Assembly (NCBI GenBank): GCA_963711835.1
Contig: CAVQFQ010000006.1
Span: 64,001-128,000, forward strand
Source: an uncultured delta proteobacterium
GTDB lineage: Bacteria; Desulfobacterota; RBG-13-43-22
Direction: 5' to 3'
DNA length: 64,000 nucleotides
The notes under the pieces were generated by a model. That model was not told the DNA's origin. It made no database searches and saw nothing but the letters and a program-made list of their open reading frames with translations. Each line of letters starts with the position of its first letter. The stretch's first letter is position 1. Below are positions 1,180 through 40,179 of this stretch, one piece after another. Made by a program: the position numbers and the translations under genes.

Positions 1180-1220
1180 GTTGCTTCCTCCTTTGGGAGA
1201 ATTATGTCATAAGAAGCACA

Positions 1221-1246
1221 TATGTCATTAATTACATATATGTCAA
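1221..1246 (-). promoter_or_regulatory. Putative operator TATGTCATTAATTACATA (1221-1238), 2 bp from a -35 TTGACA (1241-1246), upstream of the porin
   Basis: 15/16 match to TATGTCAT-N2-ATGACATA, with an extra half-site at 1203-1210. Same geometry as 12524-12549. Confidence 0.65.
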
Positions 1247-1339
1247 GAAAATTTTTTTTGCTTATAGGAACGGGGGAAAATTTAGCGGAAGACTAATGTA
1301 ATATTTTACAAAGATCCGGAGGCCTTTTGTGGGAGAGAT

Positions 1340-2203
1340 CTATTTAAGAGACTGTGCCTTCCAGGTCGCGTCATGATAAAGCGCTTCTCCATAGACATCC
1401 TTGCCGAAATCTCTGATGAGCTGCTGGCCCCGGTCCGAGGCCAAAAATGTTAAAAATTTAGCTCCTATCTCCGCCCCGGGTGTCGCCCCGGAAGGCTGGC
1501 ACAATCCGTGGTAGGCGTTGATCAGAAAAGGGTCTCCCTGATAGAGGATTTTGAAATGGGGCAAACCGGCCTTTTCCATCACCCAGGTGCTGCTATCGGT
1601 CAGGAAATAACCCCGTTCATCATAGGCCTTTTTCAGGGAGACCCCCATAAAATCATGGGTTATTCGGTAGTAATTCCCATGGGGTTGAACCCCGGCTTGG
1701 CGCCAAATAGCCATTTCTTTTCGGTGGGTCCCGGAATCATCTCCTCTGGAAAAAAATAGAGCTTTTTTGATGACAATCCGCCTGAAGGCTTCCGCCGCAC
1801 TGGCGGCCCCGGCCGTTTGGGCCGGGTCCTCGGAAGGGCCGACCAGGTAAAATTCATTAAAACCCAGCAAGGTTCTTTTCGCAGCCCAGCCTTCTTGAAC
1901 CGCCTTTTCCTCAGCGGCGGGGGAATGAACCAGAATGACATCCACTTTTTTGTTTTGGAGGAGTTTGAAGGACTCCCCGGAACCGGCTTTCACCCAGCAG
2001 AGGGAACTGCCGGTCTCCCGGGAAAAATCCTCTCCTAAGATACGGAGCAATCCCAATTCACCGGGGCTTCCAGTGGCTACAGAGAAAACAAGACTGCCTT
2101 TCCCATAAAGCTGGCTGCACCCGGTTGTCGCAATCGCTTCCGAAAAACAAATGGACACCGTCAGGAGAAGAGAAAAGAGCGAATAGCAAATCGCCTTTTT
2201 CAT
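1340..2203 (-). CDS. TupA-like tungstate/oxyanion periplasmic binding protein (variant ATGSPGELGL N-terminal motif)
   Basis: Signal peptide; motifs NEFYLVGP, FFSRGDDSGTHRKE, YFLTDSSTW, DPFLINAY typical of the TupA/PBP-like family. Confidence 0.8.
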   Translation of the reverse strand: MKKAICYSLFSLLLTVSICFSEAIATTGCSQLYGKGSLVFSVATGSPGELGLLRILGEDFSRETGSSLCWVKAGSGESFKLLQNKKVDVILVHSPAAEEKAVQEGWAAKRTLLGFNEFYLVGPSEDPAQTAGAASAAEAFRRIVIKKALFFSRGDDSGTHRKEMAIWRQAGVQPHGNYYRITHDFMGVSLKKAYDERGYFLTDSSTWVMEKAGLPHFKILYQGDPFLINAYHGLCQPSGATPGAEIGAKFLTFLASDRGQQLIRDFGKDVYGEALYHDATWKAQSLK

Positions 2204-2209
2204 CCTTCG

Positions 2210-2992
2210 CTATTTCTTCCCCTTAATCACCGAGGGTATGGCGTCGGGATAAAAAAGATTGGTGCCGTGCTTTTTATAGCCGGCGATCAATTTCTGCCCT
2301 TCCTGGGAAGTCACAAAAGCGATAAATTCCATGGCCGCCAGGTAATTCATCCTGGGGAATTTGTCCGGGTTCACGGCGATGACGCTATAATTATTGCGCA
2401 GCAGCGGATCGCCTTTAAAAAGGACTTTCAAACCCAATTTGGCTTCGTACTTCAGGAAGGTCCCCATGTCCGTCAGGGTGTAGGCGCCCTGTCGGTCCGC
2501 TTGGATCAGGGTATCGGCCATGTTGGCCCCGGCTTCCTGATACCAGGTTTTTCCCTTGGGATTGATACCGGCATCGTCCCACAAGTCCATTTCCCGGATG
2601 TTGGTACCGGAATCGTCCCCTCGAGAAAAAAAGGCGTTTCCCTTTTCGGCAATTTCTTCGAAGGCCTCAATGGCGGAGTGTGTTTTTTTTACTTTCGCCG
2701 GATCCTTGGCTGGTCCCACGATGGCAAATTCGTTATGCATGACGGCCCGCCGGTTAACCCCATAACCCTCAGCCACAAATTTTTCCTCCCGGAAAGGATC
2801 ATGCACGAAAAGAAGGTCTGCCTCTCCCTTTTTGGCCACCCGGATCGCCTTTCCCGTACCTACGGCAATGACTTCGACCTTGGCTTGAACCTTGGAAAAT
2901 TTTTCGTAGGCCGGGATTAGAATGTCAAAAAGCCCTGAATTTTGAGTGCTGGTGGTCGAAGCAATGATCAACCTGTTTTTACCTTTAACCAT
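2210..2992 (-). CDS. tupA: TupA-family tungstate-binding protein with no signal peptide
   Basis: ASTTSTQNSGL, AVGTGKA, GEADLLFVHDP, MHNEFAIVGP, FSRGDDSGT, YTLTD, LRNNYSVIAVNP. Strong RBS AAGGAGG ahead of ATG 2992. Confidence 0.85.
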   Translation of the reverse strand: MVKGKNRLIIASTTSTQNSGLFDILIPAYEKFSKVQAKVEVIAVGTGKAIRVAKKGEADLLFVHDPFREEKFVAEGYGVNRRAVMHNEFAIVGPAKDPAKVKKTHSAIEAFEEIAEKGNAFFSRGDDSGTNIREMDLWDDAGINPKGKTWYQEAGANMADTLIQADRQGAYTLTDMGTFLKYEAKLGLKVLFKGDPLLRNNYSVIAVNPDKFPRMNYLAAMEFIAFVTSQEGQKLIAGYKKHGTNLFYPDAIPSVIKGKK

Positions 2993-3076
2993 GTTAATTT
3001 TCCTCCTTTATTTTGTCTTTTAAGACCTTAATTAAATAGTTACTATTGAATAGGGTCTTGTCAAGACAGAGGCCGA

Positions 3077-4003
3077 TTATTTTCTCACCCAAGGATCTTC
3101 CCCGTGCTGTTTGCGAATAAAATCCTGAAAGGTCGCCGTCCCTTCCTTCCGGGCCTGGCCGGCGGTCAGGAATTTTCCAACCATGAGCATATGCATTTCC
3201 GGGGGGAGGTCATTAAACTGGACTTCTTTTAAAAAACCCCCGACCGTGTTGCGGATCACCTTCTGCTTTTCCCGGTCGCCGGCATAGGTGACGACGGCCA
3301 CCGGTGTGTCTTTGGGGTAATGTTTCTTGAGCTGGGTGAAAAGTTTGGGATAGTCCAGATGCATGGTATAGAAGATCATACCGGTTTTGTGGGTCATCAA
3401 TTCCTTGTTTTTGTCTTTCCGGCCGGGCCAATCGGTCATGGTCAGGATCACCGAACTGGTGTCCCAGCCGTAAGGGGGGCTCATTTTCACGGCGGCACTG
3501 GCGGCCTGAAAGGCCCCTATCCCCGGGATGACTTCGGAAGGAAAGTCCTTGGGCAGCATCTCCAGGTAATAGGTCGTTCCATACATCATAGGATCGCCCC
3601 ACTGAAGCGCGGCCACGGTCTTGCCTTGTTCCACGGCCTTTTTGATCCGGTTAATTATTTCCTCCCGGGCCTGGGCGTTCTGTATCGCCTTGGCTTTTTT
3701 CCCCGGGTCTTTTATTGTCTCCGGGTCGATTCCATAATAGACCCGGGAAAAATGCCCCAGGTACCAGACTTCCTTGCCCTCGATCATGGGTTTCCAGGCT
3801 TCAAGATCGCCCCTTTCCTCCAGGAGGACGATATCGGTCTTCTTGAGCACCTCTTGGCCGCGGACAGTGATCAGGTCCGGCATGGTTCCCATGCCGACGA
3901 TATAGAATTTACCGGCTTCCGCCCAGGCTGAGCCGGCCAAAACAACCACGGTTAACAAAACAACTGCGACCAGAGTCGCCCAATTTTTGGTGCCTTTAAT
4001 CAT
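3077..4003 (-). CDS. Tetrapyrrole (CobM/CbiF-like) methyltransferase-fold protein with N-terminal signal peptide
   Basis: FYIVGMGTMPDLITVRG, WGDPMMYG, VIPGIGAFQAA, YPKDTPVAVV, preceded by a hydrophobic leader ending AGSAWA. Confidence 0.8.
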   Translation of the reverse strand: MIKGTKNWATLVAVVLLTVVVLAGSAWAEAGKFYIVGMGTMPDLITVRGQEVLKKTDIVLLEERGDLEAWKPMIEGKEVWYLGHFSRVYYGIDPETIKDPGKKAKAIQNAQAREEIINRIKKAVEQGKTVAALQWGDPMMYGTTYYLEMLPKDFPSEVIPGIGAFQAASAAVKMSPPYGWDTSSVILTMTDWPGRKDKNKELMTHKTGMIFYTMHLDYPKLFTQLKKHYPKDTPVAVVTYAGDREKQKVIRNTVGGFLKEVQFNDLPPEMHMLMVGKFLTAGQARKEGTATFQDFIRKQHGEDPWVRK

Positions 4004-4024
4004 TACCTCTTTCCTTTCTCAATG

Positions 4025-4789
4025 TTAATTAAGATGATAGACAATGGGAAGAACGATCTGGGCTTCTATGGGAGGGCGGGGAAAAGGCTCGCTTTCCTTA
4101 ACGGTCTCCAGGGCCGTTCTATCCAGAAGCTCGTATCCCGAACTTTGCATCACCTTAGCCTCTTTAATCGTTCCGTTCAGATTGATAATAAAAGAAACCA
4201 GCACCTTGCCCTGCCAACCCAGGCGGCGGGCCTGGGAGGGATAACTGACGTTCCTGAGTATCTTTTCCCGAATATAGGCAAAATGTTCACTCAAATACTT
4301 TGTTTTTGCCTTTTCCATTCCCTCCTTCCCCATTCCAACCCCGGCCCCAGTCCCTCCGGCAGTACCCAGGGCGGCCCTGGAAGACCCGGAAGCATCGGCA
4401 GCCCCCGGTTGCCGCCCTTCCAATCCTCTTCCGGGCTCCATTTCTTTCAGTTCCGGGACGTTGATCGGGACGGTCAGGTCCGAGGTGGAATGAAGGGCCG
4501 TGGGGGTGTTATCCAAAGGCTTAGGAGATTCGGATCTGACCGAGGGCCTTTCTTCCTGAACCAAAACCCCTGGCGGGGTGAGCGAAGGCTGTTTCAATTC
4601 TACTTTCTGGCGAACGGGGGCGTTAGGGGGGCTTGATTGGGGGATAGGAGGGACTGGTTTTTCCAAACTGAAGTCGATCACCGTGAGGTGGTTCTTTTTT
4701 GCCGCCAGGCTGCTGAGACCCAGGATCCCAAATAGGAAAATGGCATGGATCAGGAAAGAAACCTGGATGGCTTTGGTTTGCGGTTTCAT
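4025..4789 (-). CDS. tonB: Energy transducer TonB
   Basis: N-terminal TM with S..IH, Pro-rich linker, C-terminal YPSQARRLGWQGKV...SSGYELLD. Confidence 0.92.
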   Translation of the reverse strand: MKPQTKAIQVSFLIHAIFLFGILGLSSLAAKKNHLTVIDFSLEKPVPPIPQSSPPNAPVRQKVELKQPSLTPPGVLVQEERPSVRSESPKPLDNTPTALHSTSDLTVPINVPELKEMEPGRGLEGRQPGAADASGSSRAALGTAGGTGAGVGMGKEGMEKAKTKYLSEHFAYIREKILRNVSYPSQARRLGWQGKVLVSFIINLNGTIKEAKVMQSSGYELLDRTALETVKESEPFPRPPIEAQIVLPIVYHLN

Positions 4790-5166
4790 TTCCGTTCTTC
4801 GGTCTGGAGGCTGACCCTTTTAAATCCCATGGTTTTAATGATGTCCAGGACTTCGACAAAACCCTGGAGGGCAATATTCCGGTCGGCCCGGATCAAAATG
4901 GGGATATTCCGGTTGTGGCCGTCCATGGCTGCCTTTAATTCCGATAAAGAAATCGGTTTGGTGTTTAAAAAGATGTTTCCCTGGCGGTCGATTTCAACGG
5001 TCTGGGTGCGAAGCATTTCCCCCTGGCTCTTGACCACTTTAGGCAAGTCTATGGGGATCATTCCGGTGGCGATGAACGACGACGTAGTCAGGACAATGGT
5101 CAGGAGCACCAGCATGACATCCACCAGGGGGATGACATTGATGTAATCAAACTCCTTTTCTTCCAT
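4786..5166 (-). CDS. exbD: ExbD biopolymer transporter
   Basis: [29 protein letters not shown]. Confidence 0.93.
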
Positions 5167-5581
5167 TGCGGATCTCCCAATCCATCATCAACACTTTGAC
5201 CTTGCGCAGCAGGAAGTTATAGAGCGCGACCGAGGGGATGGCCACCAAAAGACCCACCGCCGTGGCCTTCAAGGCCAGGGCCAGGCCGACCATGATTTTC
5301 CCGGTGTCCATGAAACCTTCCAACCCGATGGTGTAAAAGGTGAGCATGATGCCCAAGACCGTCCCCAGCAAGCCGATGTAGGGCGCATTGCTGCCGATGG
5401 TGGCGATCAGGTGGAGCTTCCGGGTTAATTCTTTTTCCAGGCTTGGCCGGTCCGTAAATTGATCCAGCCTGATCTGGCGATACACCAAATACCGCTCGAT
5501 GGCGATCCCGATGGAAACGACGCTCATCAGGATCAATAATCCGATGATGCCATAATCTATGGCGATTTTCAGCCAATCCAT
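5147..5581 (-). CDS. exbB: ExbB (short type) proton channel
   Basis: [21 protein letters not shown]...[17 protein letters not shown]. Confidence 0.93.
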
Positions 5582-5603
5582 AGTTGATCCAGATAGGGGG
5601 GTC

Positions 5604-5648
5604 CGGGGCTATGAACGGCACAAAAAAGGTTCACCGGTCATAGCCCCG
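5604..5648. terminator. Stem-loop between the TonB-dependent receptor and exbB
   Basis: CGGGGCTATGAACGG ... CCGGTCATAGCCCCG inverted repeat. No clear U-tract, so it may be a stabilising or attenuating hairpin. Confidence 0.45.
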
Positions 5649-5695
5649 CCCAATTCCTATTAAAATATTCGGATTTTTTGGAGATAGTGCTTAGT

Positions 5696-7772
5696 TTAAA
5701 ATTTCCCGGTCAACCCTACCCAGAAATTTCGACCTGGTCCGGGAAAACCGTATTCCTGCTCATAGTTGATATCAAAGATGTTGTTCACTGCGAAATAAAC
5801 TTCAAAACACTTAAAAATGGGCTGGGTGGCCTTGAAGTTGGTCAGGAAATAATCCCCGGTCTTCAAGGTGGCCAAGGTCCGGTTTTGTGGGGTCGGAACC
5901 TGGGAAAGAGCCTCTCCGACATAAAGGCCGATCAGATCCAGCCGCGTCTTGGCCCGGGGGATGGTGTACTGGATACCCAGGTCCGCCTTATGCTTTGGAG
6001 AAAAAGGAACGTCGTCGCTAACCCGGCCGGCGCTGTCATTGCGGGATTCATTGTAGGTATAGTCGGCCCTTAAAAGCAGTCCTTCCATGGGATAAATAGA
6101 ACCGCCTAATTCAAAACCCGTTCGATTCACGTGGCCGTAATTTTGATAATTGCCGAGGATACCGGGGGCATCGCGGGAAATCAAATCGCTGATGTCGTGA
6201 TAGAACAGGGAGAGCTCAACCTGTCCCATCTTGCCGATGGCCTGGTTGACGCCGATGGTGTAATTGATGCTTTTTTCCGAGGACAAGTTGGTATTCCCAC
6301 CACGGGTGGCATAAAGCTGCCCCAGGGTGGGGAAGCGGCTTTTCTGGGCTATCGAACCAAAGAGTCTGGTGGCCTCCAGGATCCGATAGTTTATCCCCAA
6401 CATGGGATTGAATGCGCTGGTATTCGGGGTGGGGTTGGATGTCTGGCTTACGAAATTCCCGGTACTGGAATTGGTTACATTCTTCTGGGCCTGGGTAACC
6501 CCGAACCAGTCATAGCTGATCCCGCCGACCAGGGAAAGATTCTTGACTAATGTGAATTCGTCTTCCAGACCCAGGGATCCGGTCCGGGAGACGGATTCGG
6601 CAAAGGGCAGATAGGTGTCATCTCGCTCTTTATGGGAGTCTTCTTTGTAATGAAAGGACATGCGCAGGGTGTTCCATTTTACGGGCTGGAAATCCATAAA
6701 AAAAGACCCGCCCATAAAATAGTCCTCGTAGCGACTGGTGGCGATTTGCTTGGTAAAGCTCTGGTCGGAGTACGACACATAATCATCATTATGGTGATGA
6801 TAAAAAAGTTTGGCCTTAAGGGCAAACTGGTCGGTCAGCCGGTGGGCCCCATCCAGATCGACTCCCCAGTCTTCGTAATTTAGGATCCGGGCAAAATTGG
6901 AGAAGGCTGGCCGGGTGGTGATAACCTGATTGGAATCCGTGGAGGGGGGGTATCCTTTATCCCGGTTCAGGTAATGGAAGTTGACAAAAAATTCAGAATC
7001 CTTTTTTGGGGTCGCCCCGAATTTGGCCCAGAAATTCTTGCTGGTCAAATCCGAGTTGTTCCGGGTCCCGCCGTCCTCGAAAACGGCCTGGCTGGTCCCC
7101 CCGGGTGTGCGTCTGAGGGTCCCCTTTCTGGCTTTATAATCATCGGACAGATTCCAGCCGTTGGAATCCTGGAAAGAGGCATTCAGCCACCAGTTCCAAA
7201 TCCCCGCCTTCATACCATGGGTGGCCGAGAGCCGATAGGTTTGATTTTCCCCGAACTCAATCGTGGCGCTGGTAAAAGGCTTTTCAGACGGTTTTTTGGT
7301 AACAATGTTGATTACCCCAACCAGGGCATTGGGGCCGTAAAGAACCGAGGCAGCCCCTTTGGTGATTTCGATCTTGGCAATGTTGTCGGTCGGGATCTGG
7401 TTCAGATCCAACTTGCCGCCATTGGTTTCATAGTAAGGAACTCCATCGATCAGGATTAGGGCTTGGGTCTGATCAAACCCACGAATGGAGACATTGGGTT
7501 CGTTCTTCCGACCAATGGTAACCCGGACACCCGGGGCATAGGTCAGGGCCTCGGCCACGGTTTTGCTGTTGGTGGCCTGGATATCCTCAGCGGTGATCTC
7601 GGTGATGGTGGCTACTTCCCGGACGCCGGATTTTTGCTCTGAAACCACGATTTCGCCCAGGGTGTAGATCTCGAAATCCTTGGCCTGCGATTCCGAAGCG
7701 AACCAGCCAGGACCACACCCCAACCAAAGAAACAACCAGGGCCATTCCAATGATCCTTTTTCCTTCCTTCAT
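5696..7772 (-). CDS. TonB-dependent receptor (apparent +1 frameshift near 7718-7721 in the signal peptide)
   Basis: TonB box LGEIVVS, plug SIRGFD...LILIDGVP...KIEITKGAASVLYG...GVINIVTKK, C-terminal PGRNFWVGLTGKF. The strong RBS (AAGGAGGAGG) precedes ATG 7772 (MKEGKRIIGMALVVSLVG), which is one base out of frame with the 5696..7750 ORF. Confidence 0.88.
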
Positions 7773-7787
7773 TTTTTCCTCCTCCTT

Positions 7788-9101
7788 TTATTTATGTTTT
7801 TTATTTTTCCTTGACCAGAAGAAATAAAACGGCAACCCCGTCAAGGTGATTAAAACCCCTAACAGCGAAGTGCCCGGTTTGTCTCCTGAAATCTGCCAGG
7901 CGATCCAGCCGTAGGCCGCCACAAAAACCAGGGGCGTCAGGGGGAATCCCCAGGTTCGGTAGGCTCTGAGCTGGTTGGGTTGTTTAACCCTGAGGACCAG
8001 ATGAGCCAACCCGGTCGCCATGGAGGCCAGGAGCATGATTAAAACCACATAGCCCAGAAGCTGATCAAAACTTCCCCAGACGACCATCAAGGCCGCCAGC
8101 AGCCCCTGGATCAAAATCGATCCATAAGGGGTCTTATAGCGGGGATGAAGTTTTTTCAGGAAAGACCAAAAGATTCTATCCTCGGCCATGGCATAAAAAA
8201 TCCGGGAACAGGCCAGGATGGTGGCATTGATGCTGGAGGCAATGGCCAGTAGGATGGCCAGGGAGATCATCCCGGCAAAGGTGCTGTTAAACAGGGTGGT
8301 AGCCGCCAATTGGCCCACGTTAACCACACCCTTCAGACTCGAAATGGGGACCGCGTATAAATAGGTTATATTGACCAGGGTATAAAGGACGGTAACTATC
8401 AAAGTCCCCCAGAGAAGCGAGCGGGGGACGTTTCTTTCCGGGTCCTTGACTTCACTGCCCACATAGGTGGAGGCGAACCAGCCGCTGTAGGTAAAAATAA
8501 CGGCGATCATGGGCGAGGCCAGCATCTTGGACCAGGGGATCGTTCCTCCCGGGCCGCCGGCGAAATGCTGCCAGCTTCCATTGCCGAAAAGCAGCCCCCA
8601 AAATATTAAAATACCCAGCAGGGCCAGGGAGCCCAGGGTGAAGAAATCCTGGGTGGTGCCGCCCCAACGGATTCCCCGGTAATTGACCCAGGTAAACAGG
8701 GCGATGACCACCATGGCCGCCGGCTTTCCGGCACCCGGCAAGGCTGCCGGAAGGACCGGTTTTAGATAAGTGGCCAGGGCCAACGACAGGGCGGCAATGG
8801 AACCGGGGATAATAATCCAAAAGTTGACCCAACCCAACAGAAACCCGGCCCAGGGCCCGTAAGCCTCCTTCAGGAACTGGTAATCACCCCCCGACCTGGG
8901 AAACAAGCCTGCCAGTTCGGCATAGGTCAGGGCCCCGCAAAGGGTCAGCAAGCCCCCAATAATCCAGATGCCGATAAACCAGAAAGGCTGAGGCAGTTCA
9001 CCGGCCAGGAAGCCGCTGGTGGTAAAAATACCGGCGCCGACTACATTGCCTACCACCAGTAGAATGGCATCCCCTAAGGTGAGGCTTCTTTTAAGCTGCA
9101 A
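7788..9101 (-). CDS. APC-family amino acid permease
   Basis: LKRSLTL, VGNVVGAGIF, YAELAGLFPRSGGDYQFLKEAYG, YSGW...GSEVKDPERNVPR; about 12 TM segments; TTG start with AAGGA RBS. Confidence 0.9.
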   Translation of the reverse strand: MQLKRSLTLGDAILLVVGNVVGAGIFTTSGFLAGELPQPFWFIGIWIIGGLLTLCGALTYAELAGLFPRSGGDYQFLKEAYGPWAGFLLGWVNFWIIIPGSIAALSLALATYLKPVLPAALPGAGKPAAMVVIALFTWVNYRGIRWGGTTQDFFTLGSLALLGILIFWGLLFGNGSWQHFAGGPGGTIPWSKMLASPMIAVIFTYSGWFASTYVGSEVKDPERNVPRSLLWGTLIVTVLYTLVNITYLYAVPISSLKGVVNVGQLAATTLFNSTFAGMISLAILLAIASSINATILACSRIFYAMAEDRIFWSFLKKLHPRYKTPYGSILIQGLLAALMVVWGSFDQLLGYVVLIMLLASMATGLAHLVLRVKQPNQLRAYRTWGFPLTPLVFVAAYGWIAWQISGDKPGTSLLGVLITLTGLPFYFFWSRKNKKHK

Positions 9102-9164
9102 GGATGGGTTTCCTTTTTCTCATGAGTTCATTTTTTTAAAAAATAAAATGGTGCCCTCTTTCTT

Positions 9165-10943
9165 TTAATGGTGCCGATCCAGGGAGCTAGCCTCCAGGCA
9201 AGTCCCGATGTAGATCATCCCCAGCCATTTTTCTTTTTCGTCCCAGGTCAGGGAAAGGGCCTGGTCCAATTGGGTTTTAAGCAGCCGCTCGCTATCGGAA
9301 TAGCCCACCCGATAGGCGAAATAAACCGGCGTTTTCGGCGGGTAAACGGTGCCCAGCAGATCTACCAGATTTTTTAATTCTTTCAGTCCCATGAAGAGAG
9401 CCAGGGTATCGCCTTTTTCCAGCGCTGCCTTGAGCAAGGCGGGGTTGTCCTTAAGCGCCCAGAAAGTGGAAAGAATAATCGAGCCCCCTTTGCAGGCCAT
9501 TTCTTTGCCGATCAGGGCATTGGCGGCATTGAAAGCGCTGACGCCGGGAATAATTTCCTTCTGGCTGTCGTCAAACTGAGCGGCGATATGCCGAAGGCTT
9601 CCGTAAATGGAAGGATCCCCATATTCCAGGAGGGCCACGTTTTTGCCCTGCTTGAGTTCCGCTTTAATCAATGCTGCCGCCTCTTCCAACTTTCCCTGGA
9701 GCAGCCGTTTTTTCTCTTCGGCAGACAACTTGGCCAGTTCTTTTCCATAGATGGGTTCCGGCATCAGGTATTTGAAGGGATCAAAAAGGACAGGGCGCTC
9801 CCCGATATAGGAGGCGAACCTTTTTTTGATGTCATCGGAACAGATAAAGACATCGGCCCGGCCTATGGCCGATAGCGCTTTCCGGGTCAACAGATCCGGG
9901 TCGGCACAGCCCACACTGATCAGCATGACCTTGGGCTCCCGGCGCAAAGAGATTACCTCGATCCGGGAAACGGCCTTGACCCAGCGGTCGGCGGAAAGGT
10001 CGTCCGGTATGACCAGCTTGAATTTGCCGTCCGCTTTGATGGGCCGACCATCCAGGCGATCGGCAATTACGATCCGCCGGCCCAGAGGGTTAAGTAAAAG
10101 TTCCCCAGCCGAGATCAGCGACCGGTAGCCGTCCGGTGCGGAAATCACCAGGGCCGAATCGAGGGCCGGAGTAATGCCGGCCTTTTTGAGTAATTCCATT
10201 AACGGCACACCCTCAAGAAGGAGGTGGCCATGATAGCCCTTGCCGTCTCCAAAGACCTTCCCCGGCACCTCCAGACGGGGATAAGAAGATAAATCACTAA
10301 GGGACAGGATTTGTTTCCCGTTCTGAACAATTGAAAGGGCCGGGGCGAAGAGTTCCGGGACTTTCTTGGTGGGCAGTTTCAGGTGCAGGTCGATTACTTC
10401 AATACTGGTGATGTTCTCCAGGGATCGCTCGGTGTAGAAATCGTTGGCGACCACCAGCTTCGGAAATCCCACACTTCTCTTCAATGGATCATACCAGATC
10501 CGGTAAACCTCCGGTTTGTGGCAGAGGTTGCAGTCCCTAAAAGGCATGATGGGCGCTGCCTGGGTAGCAATCACGATTTCAGCCGGATTGCGGTAAAAGA
10601 CCTCGCCCCAGGACAGGACCGTTTGTTTTCCCTCCCGGTTACGGATCACAATGGCCAGATCCAGGGGTTTAATAAAAGAGGATTCTCCTTTTTGGATCAC
10701 GGCCGTTTCCAGCAATTCTTTCAAAGGCACCCCGCGGTAGTTGAAAACGCCGTGGAATTTTTTGTCCTGGTTCAGTTCATTGAGACGAACCTGGACCGAT
10801 TGAAAGCGGGCCAGGTCATTCAAGCTTAATTGAAGCGGCTGTTTGACCGCACCAATGATGCTTAAACCTTCCGACGAAACCGCCCAGGACGGCACGGTGT
10901 ATAAAAAAACCCCCAGAAAAAAAATGGCCCACCTCTTTTTCAT
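9165..10943 (-). CDS. Exported fusion: two molybdopterin-oxidoreductase-like (sulfite oxidase fold) repeats with a CxxCH haem c motif, plus a C-terminal CobM-like tetrapyrrole methylase domain
   Basis: Signal peptide ending VPSWA. Repeat 1 LSIIGAVKQPLQLSL..YRGVPLKELL; CNLCH at 10518-10532; repeat 2 EGVPLMELL..APDGY..RWVKAVSRIEV; methylase domain ISVGCADPDLLT..GDPSIYG..IPGVSAFNAA. Confidence 0.75.
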   Translation of the reverse strand: MKKRWAIFFLGVFLYTVPSWAVSSEGLSIIGAVKQPLQLSLNDLARFQSVQVRLNELNQDKKFHGVFNYRGVPLKELLETAVIQKGESSFIKPLDLAIVIRNREGKQTVLSWGEVFYRNPAEIVIATQAAPIMPFRDCNLCHKPEVYRIWYDPLKRSVGFPKLVVANDFYTERSLENITSIEVIDLHLKLPTKKVPELFAPALSIVQNGKQILSLSDLSSYPRLEVPGKVFGDGKGYHGHLLLEGVPLMELLKKAGITPALDSALVISAPDGYRSLISAGELLLNPLGRRIVIADRLDGRPIKADGKFKLVIPDDLSADRWVKAVSRIEVISLRREPKVMLISVGCADPDLLTRKALSAIGRADVFICSDDIKKRFASYIGERPVLFDPFKYLMPEPIYGKELAKLSAEEKKRLLQGKLEEAAALIKAELKQGKNVALLEYGDPSIYGSLRHIAAQFDDSQKEIIPGVSAFNAANALIGKEMACKGGSIILSTFWALKDNPALLKAALEKGDTLALFMGLKELKNLVDLLGTVYPPKTPVYFAYRVGYSDSERLLKTQLDQALSLTWDEKEKWLGMIYIGTCLEASSLDRHH

Positions 10944-10959
10944 TTGATTTGTTTCCTCC

Positions 10960-11718
10960 TTAAACAGATTTTCGCTGCGGAAAATACCAGAGCATGAACA
11001 AGATCAAGAAGGCGAACCCCCAGAAAATAAGGTTTCTACCGGGGTCCTCCTTAATAATGATTTTTAGTTCCGGCTGGGGATTGTTACTCCGGGACATATC
11101 CAGATGGAAGGTAAGACCTTGCCAGGACAATGGTTCCAGGAATCGGATTTGCCGTTCGGTCGTGCTTCCGGCGGAACTAACCCTCAGGATCACCGAACAC
11201 TGTCTAAGCATCCCCCTAATTGGGGCCGGTGAGGCATACCGTTCACAGGCTTGAGAAATCACCTCCGCTTGTGATGAACCAGGCAGGTTGATCTGGGTTC
11301 CCGGTTTGGCTGGAATAATTTGGTTGTAACCGGCCACCAGACTGATCCCATGGCCGACCAGAATGACCAGGAAGCCCAAATGGATTAAAGAGGGGCTGAT
11401 TCTGATTGAGAACGACTTGAAACCGAGCTGTCTGCGAAGGGGCCAGAGAATAATCAGACGCTTTAGGGCACAGATCAGGGTGTTGGCGCCTAAAAAAAAC
11501 AGAAGAAGCAGTAACGTTCCCAGCCACCAGATCCGACCGGATTGCCGAAGGCCGACCCGCCGGACCCATTCCTGAATCAGCAGGTGATTTAAGGTATTGA
11601 ATAAGGAAAAATTGAATTTAAGGTAGTAGGAACCGATGCCTAAATTGAGCGAGATCAATAACAGCAACCAGAAATTGACCCAGACGTTGCCGCAGAAATC
11701 CCAAATTTTTTTCAACAT
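10960..11718 (-). CDS. Short ResB/CcsB-like cytochrome c biogenesis membrane protein
   Basis: Three N-terminal TMs with NTLIC and HLGFLVILVG (conserved His), a periplasmic domain, then DPG plus a C-terminal TM; adjacent to ccsA. ATG 11718 preferred over TTG 11733. Confidence 0.6.
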   Translation of the reverse strand: MLKKIWDFCGNVWVNFWLLLLISLNLGIGSYYLKFNFSLFNTLNHLLIQEWVRRVGLRQSGRIWWLGTLLLLLFFLGANTLICALKRLIILWPLRRQLGFKSFSIRISPSLIHLGFLVILVGHGISLVAGYNQIIPAKPGTQINLPGSSQAEVISQACERYASPAPIRGMLRQCSVILRVSSAGSTTERQIRFLEPLSWQGLTFHLDMSRSNNPQPELKIIIKEDPGRNLIFWGFAFLILFMLWYFPQRKSV

Positions 11719-11722
11719 GTCC

Positions 11723-12475
11723 CTACCCTCCAATCCGGGGGATAGCGGCCTCTGTAAACAATCCCCCGTAACCGTAGAGGAGGACCAGGAAAAGGCCGAA
11801 CAAGGAAAAGCGGGCCTCGGTCTTCAGATTCCAGATTGACCGGTAGCGTAAGTGAAGCAGGGCGGCGTAGAAGCACCAGAGGGAAGCGGACTGCAGGTGC
11901 CGGTTGCTCCAATGAAGGGGCGTGGCCCAACCCAAATAGGCCCAGTAAGCGCCTAACACCTGGGCAATGCTGTAGAAGATAAACCCCCAAACGAGGAAGG
12001 AATGGAAGATTCGCGCCGGCTCCCGCTTAATTAAGTTGAGAATGGCCAGGGAGCTTCCGGCGATAAAACAAGCCTGGCCCAGGACTTCAAACATAAAAAA
12101 TAATACCGAAAAAATTGTTTGGGTTTTTGGCCCTGGAGGAATAACCCCCGTTGGAAAAAGAAGGGTGGCCAGGGAAAGAATAACGATCGGGATCAACAGA
12201 CCTTCGCTTAAGGAAGCATCCTTGGAAAAGTAGGTAAGCCCCAGACTGATCAGTGCCAGGCACCAGGGTAAAAAAAAGACGGTTTCAAAAAGGGGGTTAG
12301 GGATCCAGATCCCGATAAGCAGGCTCCGGTTAATGATAAAAAGGGTATGAAGCGTAAAACCGAGTCCAAGCAAAAACAGCATGATCCTCGGCCGGCGCCA
12401 TAGCCGGGCCAGCAGTCCTGCTCCGTAAAGCCCGATGACTATCGGAAAAATTTGGATACCTATTCCTGAGGTCAT
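11723..12475 (-). CDS. ccsA: CcsA/ResC-like cytochrome c assembly protein (divergent WWD domain)
   Basis: GFTLHT, P.NPLFET, and LGAYWAYLGWATPLHWSNRH...WCFYAALLH correspond to the GA.WA...WG..W.WD..E..W..Y...LH signature. Confidence 0.75.
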   Translation of the reverse strand: MTSGIGIQIFPIVIGLYGAGLLARLWRRPRIMLFLLGLGFTLHTLFIINRSLLIGIWIPNPLFETVFFLPWCLALISLGLTYFSKDASLSEGLLIPIVILSLATLLFPTGVIPPGPKTQTIFSVLFFMFEVLGQACFIAGSSLAILNLIKREPARIFHSFLVWGFIFYSIAQVLGAYWAYLGWATPLHWSNRHLQSASLWCFYAALLHLRYRSIWNLKTEARFSLFGLFLVLLYGYGGLFTEAAIPRIGG

Positions 12476-12523
12476 TTATAGGGAGTTACCTTTAAAGCTT
12501 ATTGTTATGCTTTTCTTGGCATA

Positions 12524-12549
12524 TATGGCAAGAATGACATATAAGTCAA
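12524..12549 (-). promoter_or_regulatory. Putative operator TATGGCAAGAATGACATA (12524-12541), 2 bp from a -35 TTGACT (12544-12549), heading the ccsA...tonB operon
   Basis: 14/16 match to the palindrome at 40161-40178. A degenerate second site TATGC-N8-GCATA abuts it at 12506-12523. Confidence 0.6.
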
Positions 12550-23090: not shown

Positions 23091-24140
23091 TTAACGTAGC
23101 GTTATTTTCCCCGGAGGACCGTCCAAAATTTCTCCTATGATCGACGCGTCCGAAAGCCCCCGGGTATGCAATTTTTCAAGAAGTAGGGGAGCGCGTTCCG
23201 CGGATAGGGCTATCAACAACCCGCCCGAGGTCTGGGCATCGGACAGGATATCCAGCAGATAGGCCGGGATGGACGGGTCAACCTGCAGGGAGCGGTGGCA
23301 GTAGTTGCGGTTGGCATGGGTTCCCCCCGGCACCATACCCATCTGGGCGTACTCACGGGCAAAGGGGATGATGGGCACCTGAGAGCTGGTGATGACCAGG
23401 CAGTACTTGCTGGCTACAGCCATTTCCAGGGCATGGCCCAATAATCCAAAGCCGGTGATATCGGTGCAGCCGTGGGCGCCGATCTCCTGCATGACCTCGG
23501 CAGCAACGCGGTTCGATTCCACCATAACCGCGATCATGGCCTGCTCCGCTTCTTTGGAGGCGAACTTACCCTTCAAGGCCGTGGCGATGATCCCGGTACC
23601 TATCGGCTTGGTCAGAATCAGATGATCGCCGGGACGGGCTCCGGCATTGGTCATGACTTTATCGGGGTGTATGATCCCGGTTACCGAGAGACCATATTTC
23701 AATTCTACATCATCCACGCTGTGCCCGCCCACCAGCAAGGCCCCGGCCTCATGGATCTTTTCTAACCCCCCCTTGAGGATTTGCTTTAACACGGATTTTT
23801 CCAGGCTCTTTTTGGGAAAACAGACGATATTCATGGCGGTGAGCGGTTTGCCGCCCATGGCATAAATATCACTCAAGGCATTTACGGCCGCAATCTGTCC
23901 GAAGATATAGGGGTCGTTGACAATAGGGGTGAAAAAGTCCAGGGTCTGGATCAGGGCCAGATCCTCCCTTAGTTTGTAGACGCCGGCATCGTCCGAGGTC
24001 TCCCGGCCCACCAGCAGGTTAGGGTCGGTTTCAAGAGGCAAATCGGCTAAAATTTCTTCCAGGTCGCCCGGACCCAATTTAGAGGCTCAACCGGCCGCCC
24101 GGGTACTATCCAACAGATTAATGGGTTGGTCAGGCATCAT
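23091..24140 (-). CDS. selD: Selenophosphate synthetase SelD, selenoprotein form (UGA 24087-24089)
   Basis: Read-through gives MMPDQPINLLDSTRAAG-U-ASKLGPGDL, then DDAGVY, DFFTPIV, NALSDIYAMGG, GGHS, TDITGFGLLGH, QTSGGLL. SECIS-like TTGGGTC-CGGGC-GACCTGG with its loop 16 nt after UGA. Confidence 0.95.
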
Positions 24141-24158
24141 GGCCCGTTCCCCTTTCTA

Positions 24159-25055
24159 TTATTTTTTATGAACCTCGAAAAGAAATTCCTTAAATTCCTG
24201 AGCCAGGGGCGAGAAGGTTTTCTGTTTTTGGGTAATCAGAAAAAAGTTCCGTTTCAAGGGAAGGCCCTTGATCTTGGCCTCCTGGATCCGACCCTGTTCC
24301 AGGTCTTCTTCTACGGCCCGCCGGGAAATGATGGAGATGCCGACACCGGCCTTAACCGCTTGTCGGATGGCTTCATTGCTGCCCATTTCCGCTGCAATTT
24401 GTAGATCTTTCAGATCGAGGTGAATTTTATTTAAGGCCTGTTCTATGGAGGTGCGGGTGCCGGACCCTTCTTCCCGGAGAATAAAAGGGAGTTTTAAAAT
24501 TCCGGCGGGTTCGATAACCTTTCCCTTGGGCAGGCCGGTCCCGTTCGGCAAAATGCAGACCAATTCATCACTGGTGAGCAATTGGCAGGAAATCAGGCGA
24601 TGTTCCACTTGGGCCCCGACCAAGCCCATTTCAATGGATCCCTCCAGGACCTTTTCCAGGATGTTTTTGGTGTCCCCTATGAGCAACTGAATCCGAATGT
24701 TGGGATACTTTGTCTTAAAGCGGCCCAACAGGCTGGGCAGCAGGTATTGTCCCGGGATATTACTGCCGCCGACCAGTAGGTCGCCCAACCCTTTATCCCG
24801 GAACTGTTTCATGGCCCGCTGGGATTCCTCCCGGAGGGCGATCATCTGTATGGCATGCTGCTGTAATAAATGGGCCGCCCGGGTGGGCAAGACCTCTTTG
24901 CCCCGGCGATCGAAAAGGGCCAATCCCAAGTCCTCTTCCAGAAGCCGGATATGTTCGCTGATGGTAGGCTGGGAGAGGTAAAGGGCCTGCCCGGCCTTGG
25001 AAAAGCTCCTTAATTGATAAACCTTAAGAAAAACTTCCAGTCTTCTAAAGTCCAT
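24159..25055 (-). CDS. LysR-family regulator (CysL-like/selenium-metabolism-associated type) directly upstream of selD
   Basis: SFSKAGQALYLSQPTISEHIRLLE HTH; GGSNIPGQYLLP, REEGSGTR, GSNEAIRQAV. Confidence 0.9.
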   Translation of the reverse strand: MDFRRLEVFLKVYQLRSFSKAGQALYLSQPTISEHIRLLEEDLGLALFDRRGKEVLPTRAAHLLQQHAIQMIALREESQRAMKQFRDKGLGDLLVGGSNIPGQYLLPSLLGRFKTKYPNIRIQLLIGDTKNILEKVLEGSIEMGLVGAQVEHRLISCQLLTSDELVCILPNGTGLPKGKVIEPAGILKLPFILREEGSGTRTSIEQALNKIHLDLKDLQIAAEMGSNEAIRQAVKAGVGISIISRRAVEEDLEQGRIQEAKIKGLPLKRNFFLITQKQKTFSPLAQEFKEFLFEVHKK

Positions 25056-35519: not shown

Positions 35520-35601
35520 TTATTATACCCCCTTTACCAATGTGATAGGTTTAAATTTTATAGTCAATTGACTCCGGTGTGTCAACCTGATAAAGTCACC
35601 T

Positions 35602-36084
35602 ATGATGAAACACAGCGATTTAATCCCTCTGGCCCTTCCCATCGAACCAAGTCAACTGGTATCTTTCTACCCCCTTCTTCAAGAGGGGGTTCTGATTAAG
35701 ACCTGGGTGGGCTGGAGTATCCAAACCTTCCTGGAAAAGGGACTGGACTTGTCTCCGGAATTTATAAAAGATAACGTTAAGACCGTCTTCTTGGACGGCA
35801 AGGCTGTGGACGATTTCACTGCGGCCCGGATTAGGGATGGTTCGGTCCTTTCTCTCTCAGGGGCCTTGCCCGGATTGGTGGGGGCTACCCTGCGGGCCGG
35901 TGGTTTTTTTGCCGGCTTGCGAAGCCAGATCACCTATCGGGAAGAAAGTTCTCCTGTTTCGGGACAAGAGGGAATGATCACCTTAAAGGTATTCAATCTA
36001 CTTCTTAAAGAGCTTGCGCCCTTGATTTTGAAAAAAGGAATTTGGGTCAGAAAGAAAGACCTGGCCGAATACCAAAAGTCCTAA
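35602..36084 (+). CDS. Conserved hypothetical protein (possible beta-grasp core)
   Basis: Own ORF between genes; TVFLDGKAVDD...DGSVLSLSGALPGLVG. Confidence 0.55.
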   Translation: MMKHSDLIPLALPIEPSQLVSFYPLLQEGVLIKTWVGWSIQTFLEKGLDLSPEFIKDNVKTVFLDGKAVDDFTAARIRDGSVLSLSGALPGLVGATLRAGGFFAGLRSQITYREESSPVSGQEGMITLKVFNLLLKELAPLILKKGIWVRKKDLAEYQKS

Positions 36085-36181
36085 AAAGGGAAAAAGCGCT
36101 CCACCCAGGCCATTCCGAACCTGAAGGGCACCTGTGAAAATTAATCAAGAACCAGCTTGATCGGCCATCAGGCAACATTTT

Positions 36182-36290
36182 GGTAACGTTCAATAGGTTT
36201 GGCACTGGCGTATTATTGCACTGACTTGGGGACCCCTGGTTCCTTCCATCGGGTATCAGAAATAGTATGCCTCAACTTTTGAACGTTACC
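36182..36290. mobile_element. MITE-like family C, short 'empty' copy (109 bp)
   Basis: Terminal IRs GGTAACGTTCAA / TTGAACGTTACC; aligns with both arms of 42283-42607. Confidence 0.7.
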
Positions 36291-36312
36291 GACATCATAG
36301 GGAGTTTAGGAC

Positions 36313-37194: not shown

Positions 37195-37361
37195 GAAATT
37201 CCTATCGGAACTTACTCATAATCATAATTACCTGACGGGGCCGCCTTTTCTTCCGTCTGCGGCGGACCCTTTCGCCAATGACTTCAGAAAAAACAGCCCC
37301 ATCCACCCTGGTAATGTCAGCACTATTATGAGAAGATTAATGAAGAAGTCGGGGCCGTTTT

Positions 37362-38012
37362 ATGAAATTTAAGGCCGTTATTTTTGACTTGGATGGCACC
37401 CTGTTGGATACGATTGAGGATCTGGCGGATTCCATGAACGAGGTCTTGGCCGGATTTGGATTTCCGGGACATGATCTCCAGGTTTACAAGTACTTTGTGG
37501 GGGAGGGAGTGGAGGCGCTGGTCCGCCGGGCTTTGCCCCAGGAGAAGCTGACCGAAGAACTGGTGGAGCGGTCTTTAAAAATCTACCGCGAGGAATACGG
37601 GAGAAGATGGAATCTGAAGACGCATCCTTATGTCGGTATTCCCGAGATGCTGGATGCCCTGACCGGACAACAGCTGCCTCTGGCCATCCTCTCAAACAAA
37701 CCGCATGACCTCAGCCGACTGGTGGTGGCCAAACTGCTTCCCCGGTGGGATTTTAAACGCGTTTTTGGGGCCCGGGCCTCGGTGCCCAAGAAGCCGGATC
37801 CGGCTGGGGCCTTGGAGATCGCTCAGGATCTCATGATTTCACCCGAGCATTTTTTATATCTGGGGGATACCGCCATTGATATGAAAACAGCCGTAGCGGC
37901 CGGCATGTTTCCGGTGGGGGCCTTGTGGGGTTTCCGGACAGCGGAGGAATTATCGACCAATGGGGCCAAGGTTTTGATAGAAAGACCCTTAGAACTCTTA
38001 AAGCTCCTTTAG
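37362..38012 (+). CDS. HAD-family phosphatase (Gph-like)
   Basis: FDLDGTLLDT, LSNK, KPDP, YLGDTAIDM. Confidence 0.92.
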   Translation: MKFKAVIFDLDGTLLDTIEDLADSMNEVLAGFGFPGHDLQVYKYFVGEGVEALVRRALPQEKLTEELVERSLKIYREEYGRRWNLKTHPYVGIPEMLDALTGQQLPLAILSNKPHDLSRLVVAKLLPRWDFKRVFGARASVPKKPDPAGALEIAQDLMISPEHFLYLGDTAIDMKTAVAAGMFPVGALWGFRTAEELSTNGAKVLIERPLELLKLL

Positions 38013-38091
38013 GTTCAACCAACGCCGCAAAAAACCTTTTCACACTTTAAGCAATGCGAGTTTATTGTCTCAGAAATTCCTTGACAATATT

Positions 38092-38162
38092 GTCATTCCG
38101 GACTTGATCCGGAATCCATCCCGCCACCAGCGGGACTGGATTCCCGCATTCGCGGGAATGAC
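38092..38162. repeat. REP/RPE-like palindrome
   Basis: GTCATTCCGGACTTGATCCGGAATCCA...CTGGATTCCCGCATTCGCGGGAATGAC. Confidence 0.8.
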
Positions 38163-38209
38163 GGCCTTAGGAACATTGTGAGTAAAGTTGGAGGCGCAAT
38201 TTTAAAACA

Positions 38210-38250
38210 ATAAAAGCCCTTGCCGACCTCTCGCCGGCAAGGGCTTTTAT
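38210..38250. terminator. Bidirectional rho-independent terminator downstream of aor
   Basis: ATAAAAGCCCTTGCCG-N9-CGGCAAGGGCTTTTAT. Confidence 0.8.
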
Positions 38251-38293
38251 CTTAGGGTACTTCGCGGGCTTTGCGGTGAATATTGCTCTTTGA

Positions 38294-40030
38294 CTACCAG
38301 TTAAAAACCTGATCCAACTCCTCGTCCGTGACCCCGAAGGTCACGTTGTGAGGTGGCAGGACCTGGTTTTTGAAGAACTCGGGCAGGCGGTCATGCTGGG
38401 CGCTTAATCCGGCTTTTAAATTGAACTCCCTTTCATTTTTAAGAACCGACTTGCCCAGGGCCACCACGCTGTCGGCCGTCAACTCCAGCCCAAAAAAGGA
38501 ATTAAGCAGGTCGAGGAAGGCCTGAAAGGTCTCCGGCTGATCCATAACGGCAAAGGCGATGAAGAGACACATACCGGTAGAGTCGATGGCCGCTGTGGTG
38601 ATCTGAAGGTTCCGGGACAGTTCGATCTGGCCCGCAGGCTTCAAGGGGTCCACGAAGCCTCCGACCTTCATGATGTTGGTGGCCACGGCATACCCGGCCG
38701 TGTGGTCGGCCCCCATGGGGCTGGTGGCGTAGGTTACGCCAATGCCCTGCACGGCTCGCGGATCATAGGCCGGCATGGCCTGCCCCTTGACGACGGGGAT
38801 TCTTTCTACGCCGAAGACCTTTCCGGTCACCGCGGCGCCGCTGCCTATTATCCGGCCCAGGGGCGTTCCCTTTCCCACTTCCTTGATCAGGTTGATGGCT
38901 CCCTGGGCGTCGCCGAACTTAAGCAGACCGCCTTCCATGGCTACTCCGATCGTGGCGCCCATTTCAATAGTATCCAGGCCGATATCGTCGTCCAGGAGAT
39001 CCAGTCGGGCGATGTTGTCCAGGTCATCAATGCCGCAGTTGCCTCCATGGGCCCAGACCGTTTCGTATTCCGGCTGTTTGGTCAGGAAGTGGCCGTCTTT
39101 GTCATGATACGTTCCGGAGCAGCGGATGACGCAGCCCCGATGGCAGCCGTGAGTGGCCAGGCCCCCCCGGGAGGTTTCCAATGCCGCCTGAGTCTCCCCG
39201 CTGATCTTGGCTGCGCCTGCAAAGCGGCCTTCCTTAAAATTATAGGTGGGATATCCCCCGGCTTCGTTGAGGATGTTGGTCAGGACATTGGTGCCGTAGG
39301 CCGGAAGTCCCTGGCCGGTAACCGGGTTGGATTTTAAGCCATCCACCCATTGCTTGTTGGCGGCCTTGAATTTTTCCGGGTCTTTAGGCGCCCGCATGGG
39401 CTTGCCGGTATCGTCCAGGACAATGACCTTGACGCCTTTGGAACCCATGACAGCCCCCAGACCGCCTCGGCCGGCATGACGGGTGGGTCGCAGTTCCATA
39501 TCGGTAAAGGCCACCGTAGAGGCGGCCAATTTCATTTCGCCGGCCTGCCCGATAGAGATGCAGGCGATCTTGTCGCCGTAGGCGCCTTTCATCTTTTCCA
39601 CCACGGCGTAATTTCCTAAACCCTTAAGGCTGTTGTCGGGGGTGATCTTCACCCCGTCTTTATTGATGAAGATTTTATAAAGGGTGTCGTCTTTAGGTTG
39701 GCCTTCGAGGACTATGGCGGCATAGCCGAGTCTGGCCAGGACCTGGGAAGGCTGGCCCCCGGAATTGGCCTCTTTGATGCCTCCGGTCAGAGGGCTTTTG
39801 CCGCCTACCGAGATTCTGCCCGACTGGGCGGCGGCGCTGCCGCTCAACATCCCCGGGGCAATGACCAGCTTATTATCAGCCCCCAGGGGATGGCAAAGGG
39901 GGGGCACTTCTTTTGAGACAATGGCCGAGGTCATGGCCCGGCCGCCCAATCCGGCATAGTCTCCAAGAGGAGCTTCCTTCGCTTTAGGGCCGCCATCGGC
40001 CCCCATATCGATCCGTAACACTTTATCCAT
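38294..40030 (-). CDS. aor: Aldehyde:ferredoxin oxidoreductase (tungsten AOR family)
   Basis: KSPLTGGIKEANSGG, AGRGGLGAVMGSKGVK, CHRGCVIRC, PEYET, GLDTIE, YDPR..YATSPMGADH, DSTGMCLF. Confidence 0.95.
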   Translation of the reverse strand: MDKVLRIDMGADGGPKAKEAPLGDYAGLGGRAMTSAIVSKEVPPLCHPLGADNKLVIAPGMLSGSAAAQSGRISVGGKSPLTGGIKEANSGGQPSQVLARLGYAAIVLEGQPKDDTLYKIFINKDGVKITPDNSLKGLGNYAVVEKMKGAYGDKIACISIGQAGEMKLAASTVAFTDMELRPTRHAGRGGLGAVMGSKGVKVIVLDDTGKPMRAPKDPEKFKAANKQWVDGLKSNPVTGQGLPAYGTNVLTNILNEAGGYPTYNFKEGRFAGAAKISGETQAALETSRGGLATHGCHRGCVIRCSGTYHDKDGHFLTKQPEYETVWAHGGNCGIDDLDNIARLDLLDDDIGLDTIEMGATIGVAMEGGLLKFGDAQGAINLIKEVGKGTPLGRIIGSGAAVTGKVFGVERIPVVKGQAMPAYDPRAVQGIGVTYATSPMGADHTAGYAVATNIMKVGGFVDPLKPAGQIELSRNLQITTAAIDSTGMCLFIAFAVMDQPETFQAFLDLLNSFFGLELTADSVVALGKSVLKNEREFNLKAGLSAQHDRLPEFFKNQVLPPHNVTFGVTDEELDQVFNW

Positions 40031-40103
40031 AATTGATCTCCTTTCTATTTGGAAGCGCTGAGGTTAACGATGACCATCCGTAAAAGAATAACCGATCATC
40101 TCA

Positions 40104-40179
40104 ATTTTCTTCTGAATTTACCGGCAAGTCAAGGATTAAATAAGTGTAATATTAATTAGTTATGTCATTTATGACATAA
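40104..40179 (-). promoter_or_regulatory. aor promoter (-35 TTGACT 40127-40132, weak -10 GAAAAT 40104-40109) with perfect palindrome TTATGTCAT-TT-ATGACATAA at 40160-40179
   Basis: Perfect 9-bp arms centred about 40 bp upstream of the -35 hexamer. Confidence 0.7.

Follow-up and report, generated by a model that had tools for sequence, protein, structure and literature searches.

The regulator ModE of Escherichia coli represses uptake genes and activates cofactor and enzyme genes, TunR needs Mop/TOBE domains, and TaoR of Desulfovibrio, as Rajeev et al. are said to have found in 2019, represses tup and activates aor. We analyzed an 18-bp palindrome, TATGTCA-N4-TGACATA, that stands before tungsten and molybdenum (W/Mo) genes in a 64,000-nucleotide stretch of DNA (the window) from an uncultured delta proteobacterium of the phylum Desulfobacterota (assembly GCA_963711835.1, contig CAVQFQ010000006.1, positions 64,001 to 128,000). 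As judged from sequence comparison, the palindrome is probably the operator of a short ModE-family regulator that has the DNA-binding domain only and would control the W/Mo genes of the cell. In the available excerpts of PMC545781, the E. coli ModE consensus is given as ATCGNTATATA-N6-TATATANCGAT, with a 6-N6-6 core arrangement that the present box shares, a Geobacter modD site (Table 6) contains TATGTCAT, a Desulfovibrio site, CGGTCACG-N14-CGTGACCG, is longer than this box and different in sequence, and single-domain ModE genes are recorded in Desulfovibrio and Desulfotalea with sensing that is unclear. Campylobacter jejuni encodes Cj1507c, a ModE-like regulator of tungstate and molybdate uptake (Taveirne et al. 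2009, via excerpts of PMC3417520 and PMC7011364); the excerpted text of PMC3417520 describes a ModE-like protein without a metal-binding domain, proposes that partners or the molybdenum or tungsten cofactor (Moco/Wco) may carry the signal, and states that the sensing partner is unknown. Excerpts of PMC11980592 and PMC12327845 describe TaoR as a regulator that responds to tungstate and combines an HTH_17 with a PBP-like domain.

Three strong copies of the palindrome occur in the window: TATGTCATTAATTACATA before a porin gene, TATGGCAAGAATGACATA before an operon for a TonB-dependent system, and the perfect copy TATGTCATTTATGACATA before aor, a gene of the aldehyde ferredoxin oxidoreductase family (Table 1). 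Their sequences and coordinates, starting at 1221, 12524 and 40161, agree with those in a first-pass annotation of the window, and they are its only matches with up to three mismatches to the consensus proposed there, against a mean of 0.09 in shuffled sequence and 0 of 100 shuffles that reached three. A matrix built from four local sites, the fourth of which stands in front of tupBC, 6 kb short of the start of the window, found an untrained fifth site on another contig between moaA and moeA1-moeA2/PBP (22.1 bits, next site 18.2). A second matrix, trained on 76 sites in the vicinity of short-modE genes at 70 loci of other genomes, ranked the sites at aor (30.0 bits), porin (23.8), moaA/moeA (21.5), the TonB operon (21.4) and tupBC (21.1) as the top five of the genome; the next site reached 16.3 bits (C22:53327, with no long open reading frame (ORF) nearby; here and below C, L and G numbers are our labels for contigs, loci and genomes), and the genome read backwards peaked at 14.3. 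Five sites in 3.9 Mb thus exceed 21 bits, all at W/Mo genes, and the lower-ranked hits that we inspected lie in coding sequence or before genes without a W/Mo link. Other AFOR-, Fdh- and Mop-type ORFs of this genome (completeness 89%) have no box with up to two mismatches within 350 bp upstream, and some of them may be operon-internal. The palindrome is a genuine shared box linking W/Mo uptake, cofactor and enzyme genes, as the earlier idea of one regulator's box joining uptake genes and aor had it.

Conservation extends this picture across relatives and the phylum. A box with at most one mismatch is present in 16 of 18 family relatives, and the other two have degenerate boxes, before formate dehydrogenase (fdh) genes and before the TonB operon. 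The first gene of the TonB operon occurs in 10 of 20 genomes of the class, and the box precedes all nine operons with upstream DNA (eight with up to two mismatches, one with three); at seven or more of these nine loci, as read from the sequences, a TTGAC(A/T) stops 2 bp short of the first box. Eight close porin homologs have upstream DNA, four with a box of up to two mismatches, one with four mismatches and three without a box. The TonB/CobM-fold operon and the porin gene, which the first-pass annotation had put forward as new regulon members, both hold their place on this evidence. Among 15 close aor orthologs, 11 have a box with up to four mismatches, three have none and one has no upstream DNA. 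The exact box occurs in 36 of 401 genomes of the phylum and the reversed control in 0 of 401. Outside the family there are 43 exact sites: 26 precede fdh, fdhD, aor, tupA, modA, modE or the TonB operon, one precedes a hydrogenase adjoining modE, three precede DUF2080 genes, seven lie at Gp49/XRE toxin–antitoxin promoters and six have no assignment. Genomes of Syntrophales and Desulfarculales, and Desulfovibrio-like ones, have the box upstream of fdh and aor, and in syntrophs the expression level of W/Mo formate dehydrogenases may be set by it.

The candidate binder is encoded by the single short modE gene of the genome (C26:4577-4903, 108–109 residues), which lies outside the window and overlaps the upstream fdhE in the gene order fdhE-modE-ahbB-hemL. 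The protein matches TIGR00637 (E 1.4e-13; 50.7 bits, under the cut-off of 98.5) and PF00126, and its only sequence match in the PDB is 2IJL. A predicted structure (predicted local distance difference test score, pLDDT, 93.5) has E. coli ModE 1B9M as its best Foldseek match (E 1.6e-6, template-modeling score (TM) 0.81) and ends in one helix, residues 80–107, that follows the wing; the short ModE has no C-terminal tandem Mop domain. A search of the whole genome for Mop/TOBE domains returned no PF03459 or TIGR00638 match, and stand-alone Mop proteins were found in three of four other genomes tested, the exception being G280. Of 18 family relatives, 14 have a match to the ModE model.

We surveyed the best 80 of at least 588 loci of the short ModE clade, mostly from Syntrophales. 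A box with up to two mismatches lies within 500 bp upstream at 41 of the 77 modE loci that have at least 300 bp of upstream DNA, and the reversed pattern at 0 of 80. Three Bacillota loci also have the box adjoining a short modE. Neighbors of modE within 1.2 kb include fdh, fmdE, moeA-PBP, tupB and mobB, and fdhE and fdhD are further neighbors in the clade. In eight genomes modE and box stand side by side (G072, G172, G386, G059, G268, G058, G405, G007), and their proteins share with the ModE of this genome the recognition-helix signature SYRAAWG(R/K); G386 has four modE paralogs, each with an adjoining box, one of them with a diverged helix. Outside the family, the exact box occurs in 17 of 49 genomes positive for SYR(A/G)AWG(R/K) versus 10 of 337 negative ones, an odds ratio of 17 among kin that are not independent, and signature and exact box co-occur in 10 families. 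Five of the 10 signature-negative genomes have the box only at toxin–antitoxin promoters, two encode a variant ModE with the helix PFRAVWGK and three have no assignment. A short ModE of another type (G023, G029) goes with CGTTAT-N12-ATAACG-like boxes instead. One locus bridges the present box and the canonical ModE box: in G340 (L209:4068-4361, near a contig end), three boxes about 130–145 bp apart have extended CGTTATG...CATAACG symmetry.

Several observations weigh against the short ModE as binder. The 76-site matrix is only a partly independent test, because its training sites were chosen with a consensus from this genome, and the 80 loci are not independent of one another, because the best were selected and Syntrophales dominate. 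No box precedes modE in this family, so the ModE–box link in this genome rests on orthology, and two relatives, G009 and G018, have no TIGR00637 match. Two fragmented genomes, G012 (93% complete) and G015 (100%), contain boxes and no short ModE was found in them. The signature is not sufficient: a search of five signature-positive genomes gave no box with up to one mismatch in four of them, and the exact box is absent from 32 of the 49. Seven of the 43 exact sites are at Gp49/XRE promoters, which shows that the 18-mer can serve another protein family. Around 74 sites, the outer CG of ModE boxes is not enriched. A tree of 28 short ModE proteins left the clade mostly unresolved, and with most forks open and one row (G027) out of frame we did not use it as support. 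As a separate observation, a short modE immediately precedes aor in G124 (L216:4741-5185), where no box of up to one mismatch was found, and the gap between the two genes contains a different long inverted repeat.

The best-surviving alternative, which we consider improbable, is that another regulator travelling with W/Mo clusters binds the box and that modE is a mere neighbor, the candidates being DUF2080 (a small protein, presumably with a swapped-hairpin fold), a 270-residue protein without a Pfam match, an XRE-type protein or an unseen factor. In three genomes DUF2080 genes are preceded by exact boxes, and G012 and G015, where the short ModE was not found, do encode DUF2080, but it occurs in only 12 of 44 genomes tested and was not found in the box-bearing G386, G405, G059 and G058 or in any of the four f58 genomes. 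The gene for the 270-residue protein directly follows the box in the loci inspected, yet the protein occurs in 7 of 31 genomes and was not found in this one; on distribution, both candidates fail as the regulator. XRE antitoxin operons carry an identical palindrome, but they do so in five genomes without the ModE signature, where the 18-mer lies 11–30 bp before operons of a Gp49/RelE-like toxin and an XRE antitoxin (L161, L162, L164, L197, L200, L201), likely through convergent use by the antitoxin. The 270-residue protein, which has no Pfam or NCBIfam match, is itself of interest as a neighbor of the box (L042:1648-2469, L049:1601-2419, L051:660-1466, L091:1411-2247 and 6888-7655, L095:4405-5211); two of its loci lie just before a Mop-type aldehyde oxidoreductase and two beside DUF2080. 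Within the family, DUF2080 belongs to a conserved group of three together with a GNAT-like gene and a second AOR-family gene (L106:1399-2063, orthologs L104-L119), and this second AOR type has an exact box upstream in G109, G140 and G349 and not in this genome.

The first-pass annotation read the sites as a TaoR-like regulon, in which the box is the operator of an excisionase-HTH and PBP-domain regulator that represses tup and activates aor. The target set does resemble that reported for TaoR, but we regard this reading as very unlikely. The search for such a regulator, which the first-pass annotation had called for, gave no full-length match in this genome: the only strong PBP_like match (PF12727) is a 641-residue MoeA-PBP fusion, and PF12728 gave two weak matches, a short ORF and a 333-residue protein without a PBP_like match. 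At 89% completeness a taoR gene could be missing from the assembly, so absence here is weak evidence by itself and the argument rests on the pattern across genomes. In a search with an alignment of three HTH_17+PBP proteins, 11 of 45 chosen genomes gave full-length matches and 0 of 10 family genomes, this one included, did so, and the strong PBP_like matches of 19 family genomes are MoeA-PBP fusions or pieces only. TaoR is present in 6 of 29 motif-bearing genomes and absent from 23; in three near-closed genomes of one or two contigs (G280, G349, G405) exact boxes stand at aor or fdh and TaoR is missing, and five TaoR-bearing genomes (G019, G028, G029, G318, G127) are without an exact box. At one taoR locus a box with two mismatches lies upstream, but the other 10 of 11 have none within that limit, and several instead have AT-rich repeats with a period of about 11 bp before the -35. 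These direct repeats, which resemble GTAA(T/G)AATT and lie just before the -35 (L223, L226, L228, L229, L231), are a candidate TaoR operator in their own right. The protein that binds the box is probably not TaoR, and the tup and aor target set does not identify the regulator, which corrects a tempting assignment.

TunR or a full-length ModE was rejected as the regulator for want of any Mop/TOBE match in the genome, and the consensus strings for NikR, Fur, Zur, PerR, CooA, HcpR and LysX in the available excerpts of PMC545781 do not fit by eye. That the palindrome simply reflects AT-rich promoter DNA and the likeness of its half-site to TTGACA, with no regulator involved, is hardly credible: TGACA is indeed common to the half-site and the -35 consensus, and the -35-like hexamer at 1241–1246 is itself a half-site, but the box is rare, confined above 21 bits to W/Mo genes, conserved across families and absent from the reversed control.

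Under the short ModE reading, a dimer would bind each 18-mer through its winged helix, and single or tandem boxes over the -35/-10 region would block polymerase at the porin, TonB, tupBC and moeA promoters. The degenerate second 18-mers reported beside the 1221 and 12524 boxes are present and in register. Within the 1203–1220 box, the TATGTCA half overlaps a -10-like CATAAT (1206–1201, minus strand), and the moeA box sits between TTGCAT and CATAAT, 17 bp apart. The first-pass annotation placed the two window boxes 2 bp from TTGAC(A/T), filling the spacer between -35 and -10. The 2-bp spacing and the overlap with the promoter region stand, but the -35/-10 assignment is not established, because the TTGACA at 1241–1246 doubles as part of a further, third TATGTCA half-site that keeps the 18-bp register, a good -10 is missing 16–18 bp past it, and a promoter scan of the porin region prefers ATGACA-16-CATAAT (1228 to 1201), inside both boxes; at 12.5 kb the scan called no promoter. 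Because the boxes cover the -35/-10 region, ModE binding probably represses uptake and metal insertion (porin, TonB, tupBC, moeA) when W/Mo or the pterin cofactor is plentiful, and at the uptake promoters the repressor position proposed earlier is a good reading of site position.

At aor, the box centre lies 37.5 bp upstream of the TTGACT hexamer, at about -72, in line with the earlier estimate of about 40 bp, and ModE binding there, before a promoter with the weak -10 GAAAAT, would activate the gene of a tungsten enzyme. We hold the case for activation to be evenly balanced, because the gap between box and TTGAC varies (28 bp here, 25–27 bp in four relatives, 23 bp in one distant relative and 0 bp in seven) and this speaks against one fixed activator contact; with gaps of 23–28 bp in some lineages and 0 in others, the activator half of the earlier proposal stays open. 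The weak copy that the first-pass annotation noted before tupA is not borne out as an operator, with five mismatches in 14 positions, rank 495 and no counterpart in two of two relatives that keep the matching intergenic gap (best match six mismatches). An internal tupA promoter with TTGACA is conserved there (window 3030–3068; the gap between the tetrapyrrole (TP)-methylase gene and tupA in L365 and L366), and in the two relatives this gap holds a different AT-rich inverted repeat (GTTAAAGTATT-N14-AATATTTTAAC in L365), possibly the site of a second regulator.

Table 1. Boxes, promoter-like elements and genes of the window (positions in the 64,000-nucleotide stretch; ranks are from the genome-wide matrix scan).
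Feature	Position	Strand	Basis
Operator box before porin gene, 1 mismatch to TATGTCA-N4-TGACATA	1221..1238		Matrix rank 2 in genome
Degenerate second box, 18-bp tandem register	1203..1220		11.1 bits, rank 30 in genome
TTGACA, -35-like hexamer (1246-1241), 2 bp from 1221 box	1239..1246	-	Sequence
Operator box before TonB operon	12524..12541		Rank 4 in genome
Degenerate second tandem box	12506..12523		14.5 bits, rank 12 in genome
TTGACT, -35-like hexamer (12549-12544), 2 bp from 12524 box; spacing kept in relatives	12544..12549	-	Sequence
Perfect operator box upstream of aor	40161..40178		Rank 1 in genome
TTGACT, -35-like hexamer of aor; weak -10-like GAAAAT 17 bp on	40127..40132	-	Sequence
Weak copy of first-pass annotation before tupA, unsupported as operator	3012..3029		3.1 bits, rank 495 in genome
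Porin O/P family gene, runs off window (C6:63773-65179); putatively box-controlled, by position	1..1179	-	PF07396 3e-31
Two TupA-like tungstate-binding protein genes (2210-2992, 1340-2203)	1340..2992	-	Both under NF041772 curated cut-off
TonB operon	3077..12475	-	Domain matches; gene order mostly preserved in six relatives
aor, aldehyde ferredoxin oxidoreductase family, 578 residues	38294..40030	-	PF01314, PF02730

The genes behind the boxes place an uncharacterized TonB operon under putative W/Mo control. It encodes a CcsA-like protein, a partner without a Pfam match, a fusion of Oxidored_molyb and TP-methylase folds, an APC permease, a TonB-dependent receptor, ExbB, ExbD, TonB and a second TP-methylase-fold protein. 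The fusion protein (window 9165–10943, 592 residues) has a signal-like N-terminus, a CNLCH heme-c motif (CxxCH), two Oxidored_molyb stretches and a TP-methylase fold in which the glycine-rich motif reads GCADPD; the heme-c motif and signal-like N-terminus would explain the cytochrome c maturation genes that head the operon. Control by W/Mo suggests that the cargo is a complexed form of the metal. A third tupA-like gene comes after the porin gene, beyond the window. Elsewhere in the window, selD follows a selenium-metabolism LysR gene (NF040786, above cut-off; 23091–25055), with a [NiFe]-hydrogenase and several selenoprotein-like genes near and no box nearby.

How the metal signal would reach the short ModE is more tentative. 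It may arrive through the finished W/Mo-pterin cofactor or a cofactor-handling maturation partner, with FdhE and the MoeA-PBP fusion as candidates; this route is possible, at somewhat less than an even chance, and we favor it because an oxyanion-binding domain is missing from the protein, the search gave no Mop partner, and the clade neighbors are fdh, fmdE, moeA-PBP, fdhE, mobB and fdhD. A wider proposal, which we put forward as unlikely on balance, is that sensor-less ModE proteins form a clade spread over the phylum that adopted a new operator, reads the finished cofactor through a partner such as FdhE, and has among its main targets an undescribed outer-membrane TonB uptake system that imports complexed W/Mo (thiometallate, metallophore or pterin cofactor) in sulfidic habitats. 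Such a system would consist of the TonB receptor, the APC permease, a periplasmic heme-c protein that combines a molybdopterin-oxidoreductase-like with a tetrapyrrole-methylase fold, and a dedicated set of cytochrome c maturation genes.

Compared with known systems, the probable regulator is closest in kind to Cj1507c, to which we liken it by description. As far as the excerpted accounts go, both are ModE-like proteins that lack a metal-binding domain, both genes adjoin a formate dehydrogenase accessory gene (fdhD in C. jejuni, fdhE here), and tungstate and molybdate uptake is under the control of Cj1507c and putatively of the short ModE, which here consists of the DNA-binding domain and a long helix at the C-terminal end; unlike the sites described there, the box here also precedes aor, fdh, moeA, the porin gene and the TonB operon, with one site in a possible activator position. 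With E. coli ModE (1B9M, 1O7L) and the orphan Agrobacterium ModE (2IJL) it shares the predicted winged-helix fold and an 18-bp core with a 6-bp spacer, and a putative regulon of oxyanion uptake, cofactor synthesis and W/Mo enzymes; it differs in the missing tandem Mop domain, the half-site TATGTC in place of TATATA, the outer CG that is not conserved and the helix signature. TunR regulates W/Mo homeostasis in the same phylum. TaoR of Desulfovibrio overlaps in its targets, tup and aor, and in the proposed logic of uptake repression and aor activation, but belongs to a different protein family (HTH_17 and PBP_like), and its own promoters have the AT-rich periodic repeats and not this palindrome. 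In titles and opening lines of abstracts we saw no description of the operator, which may be in print in the TaoR, TunR or Studholme & Pau 2003 papers, their supplements or RegPrecise. The kind of regulator is already known from Cj1507c and single-domain ModE proteins, and what is likely added here is the specific operator, the protein clade and the five-promoter regulon, which together open sensor-less ModE metal sensing to direct binding and partner tests.

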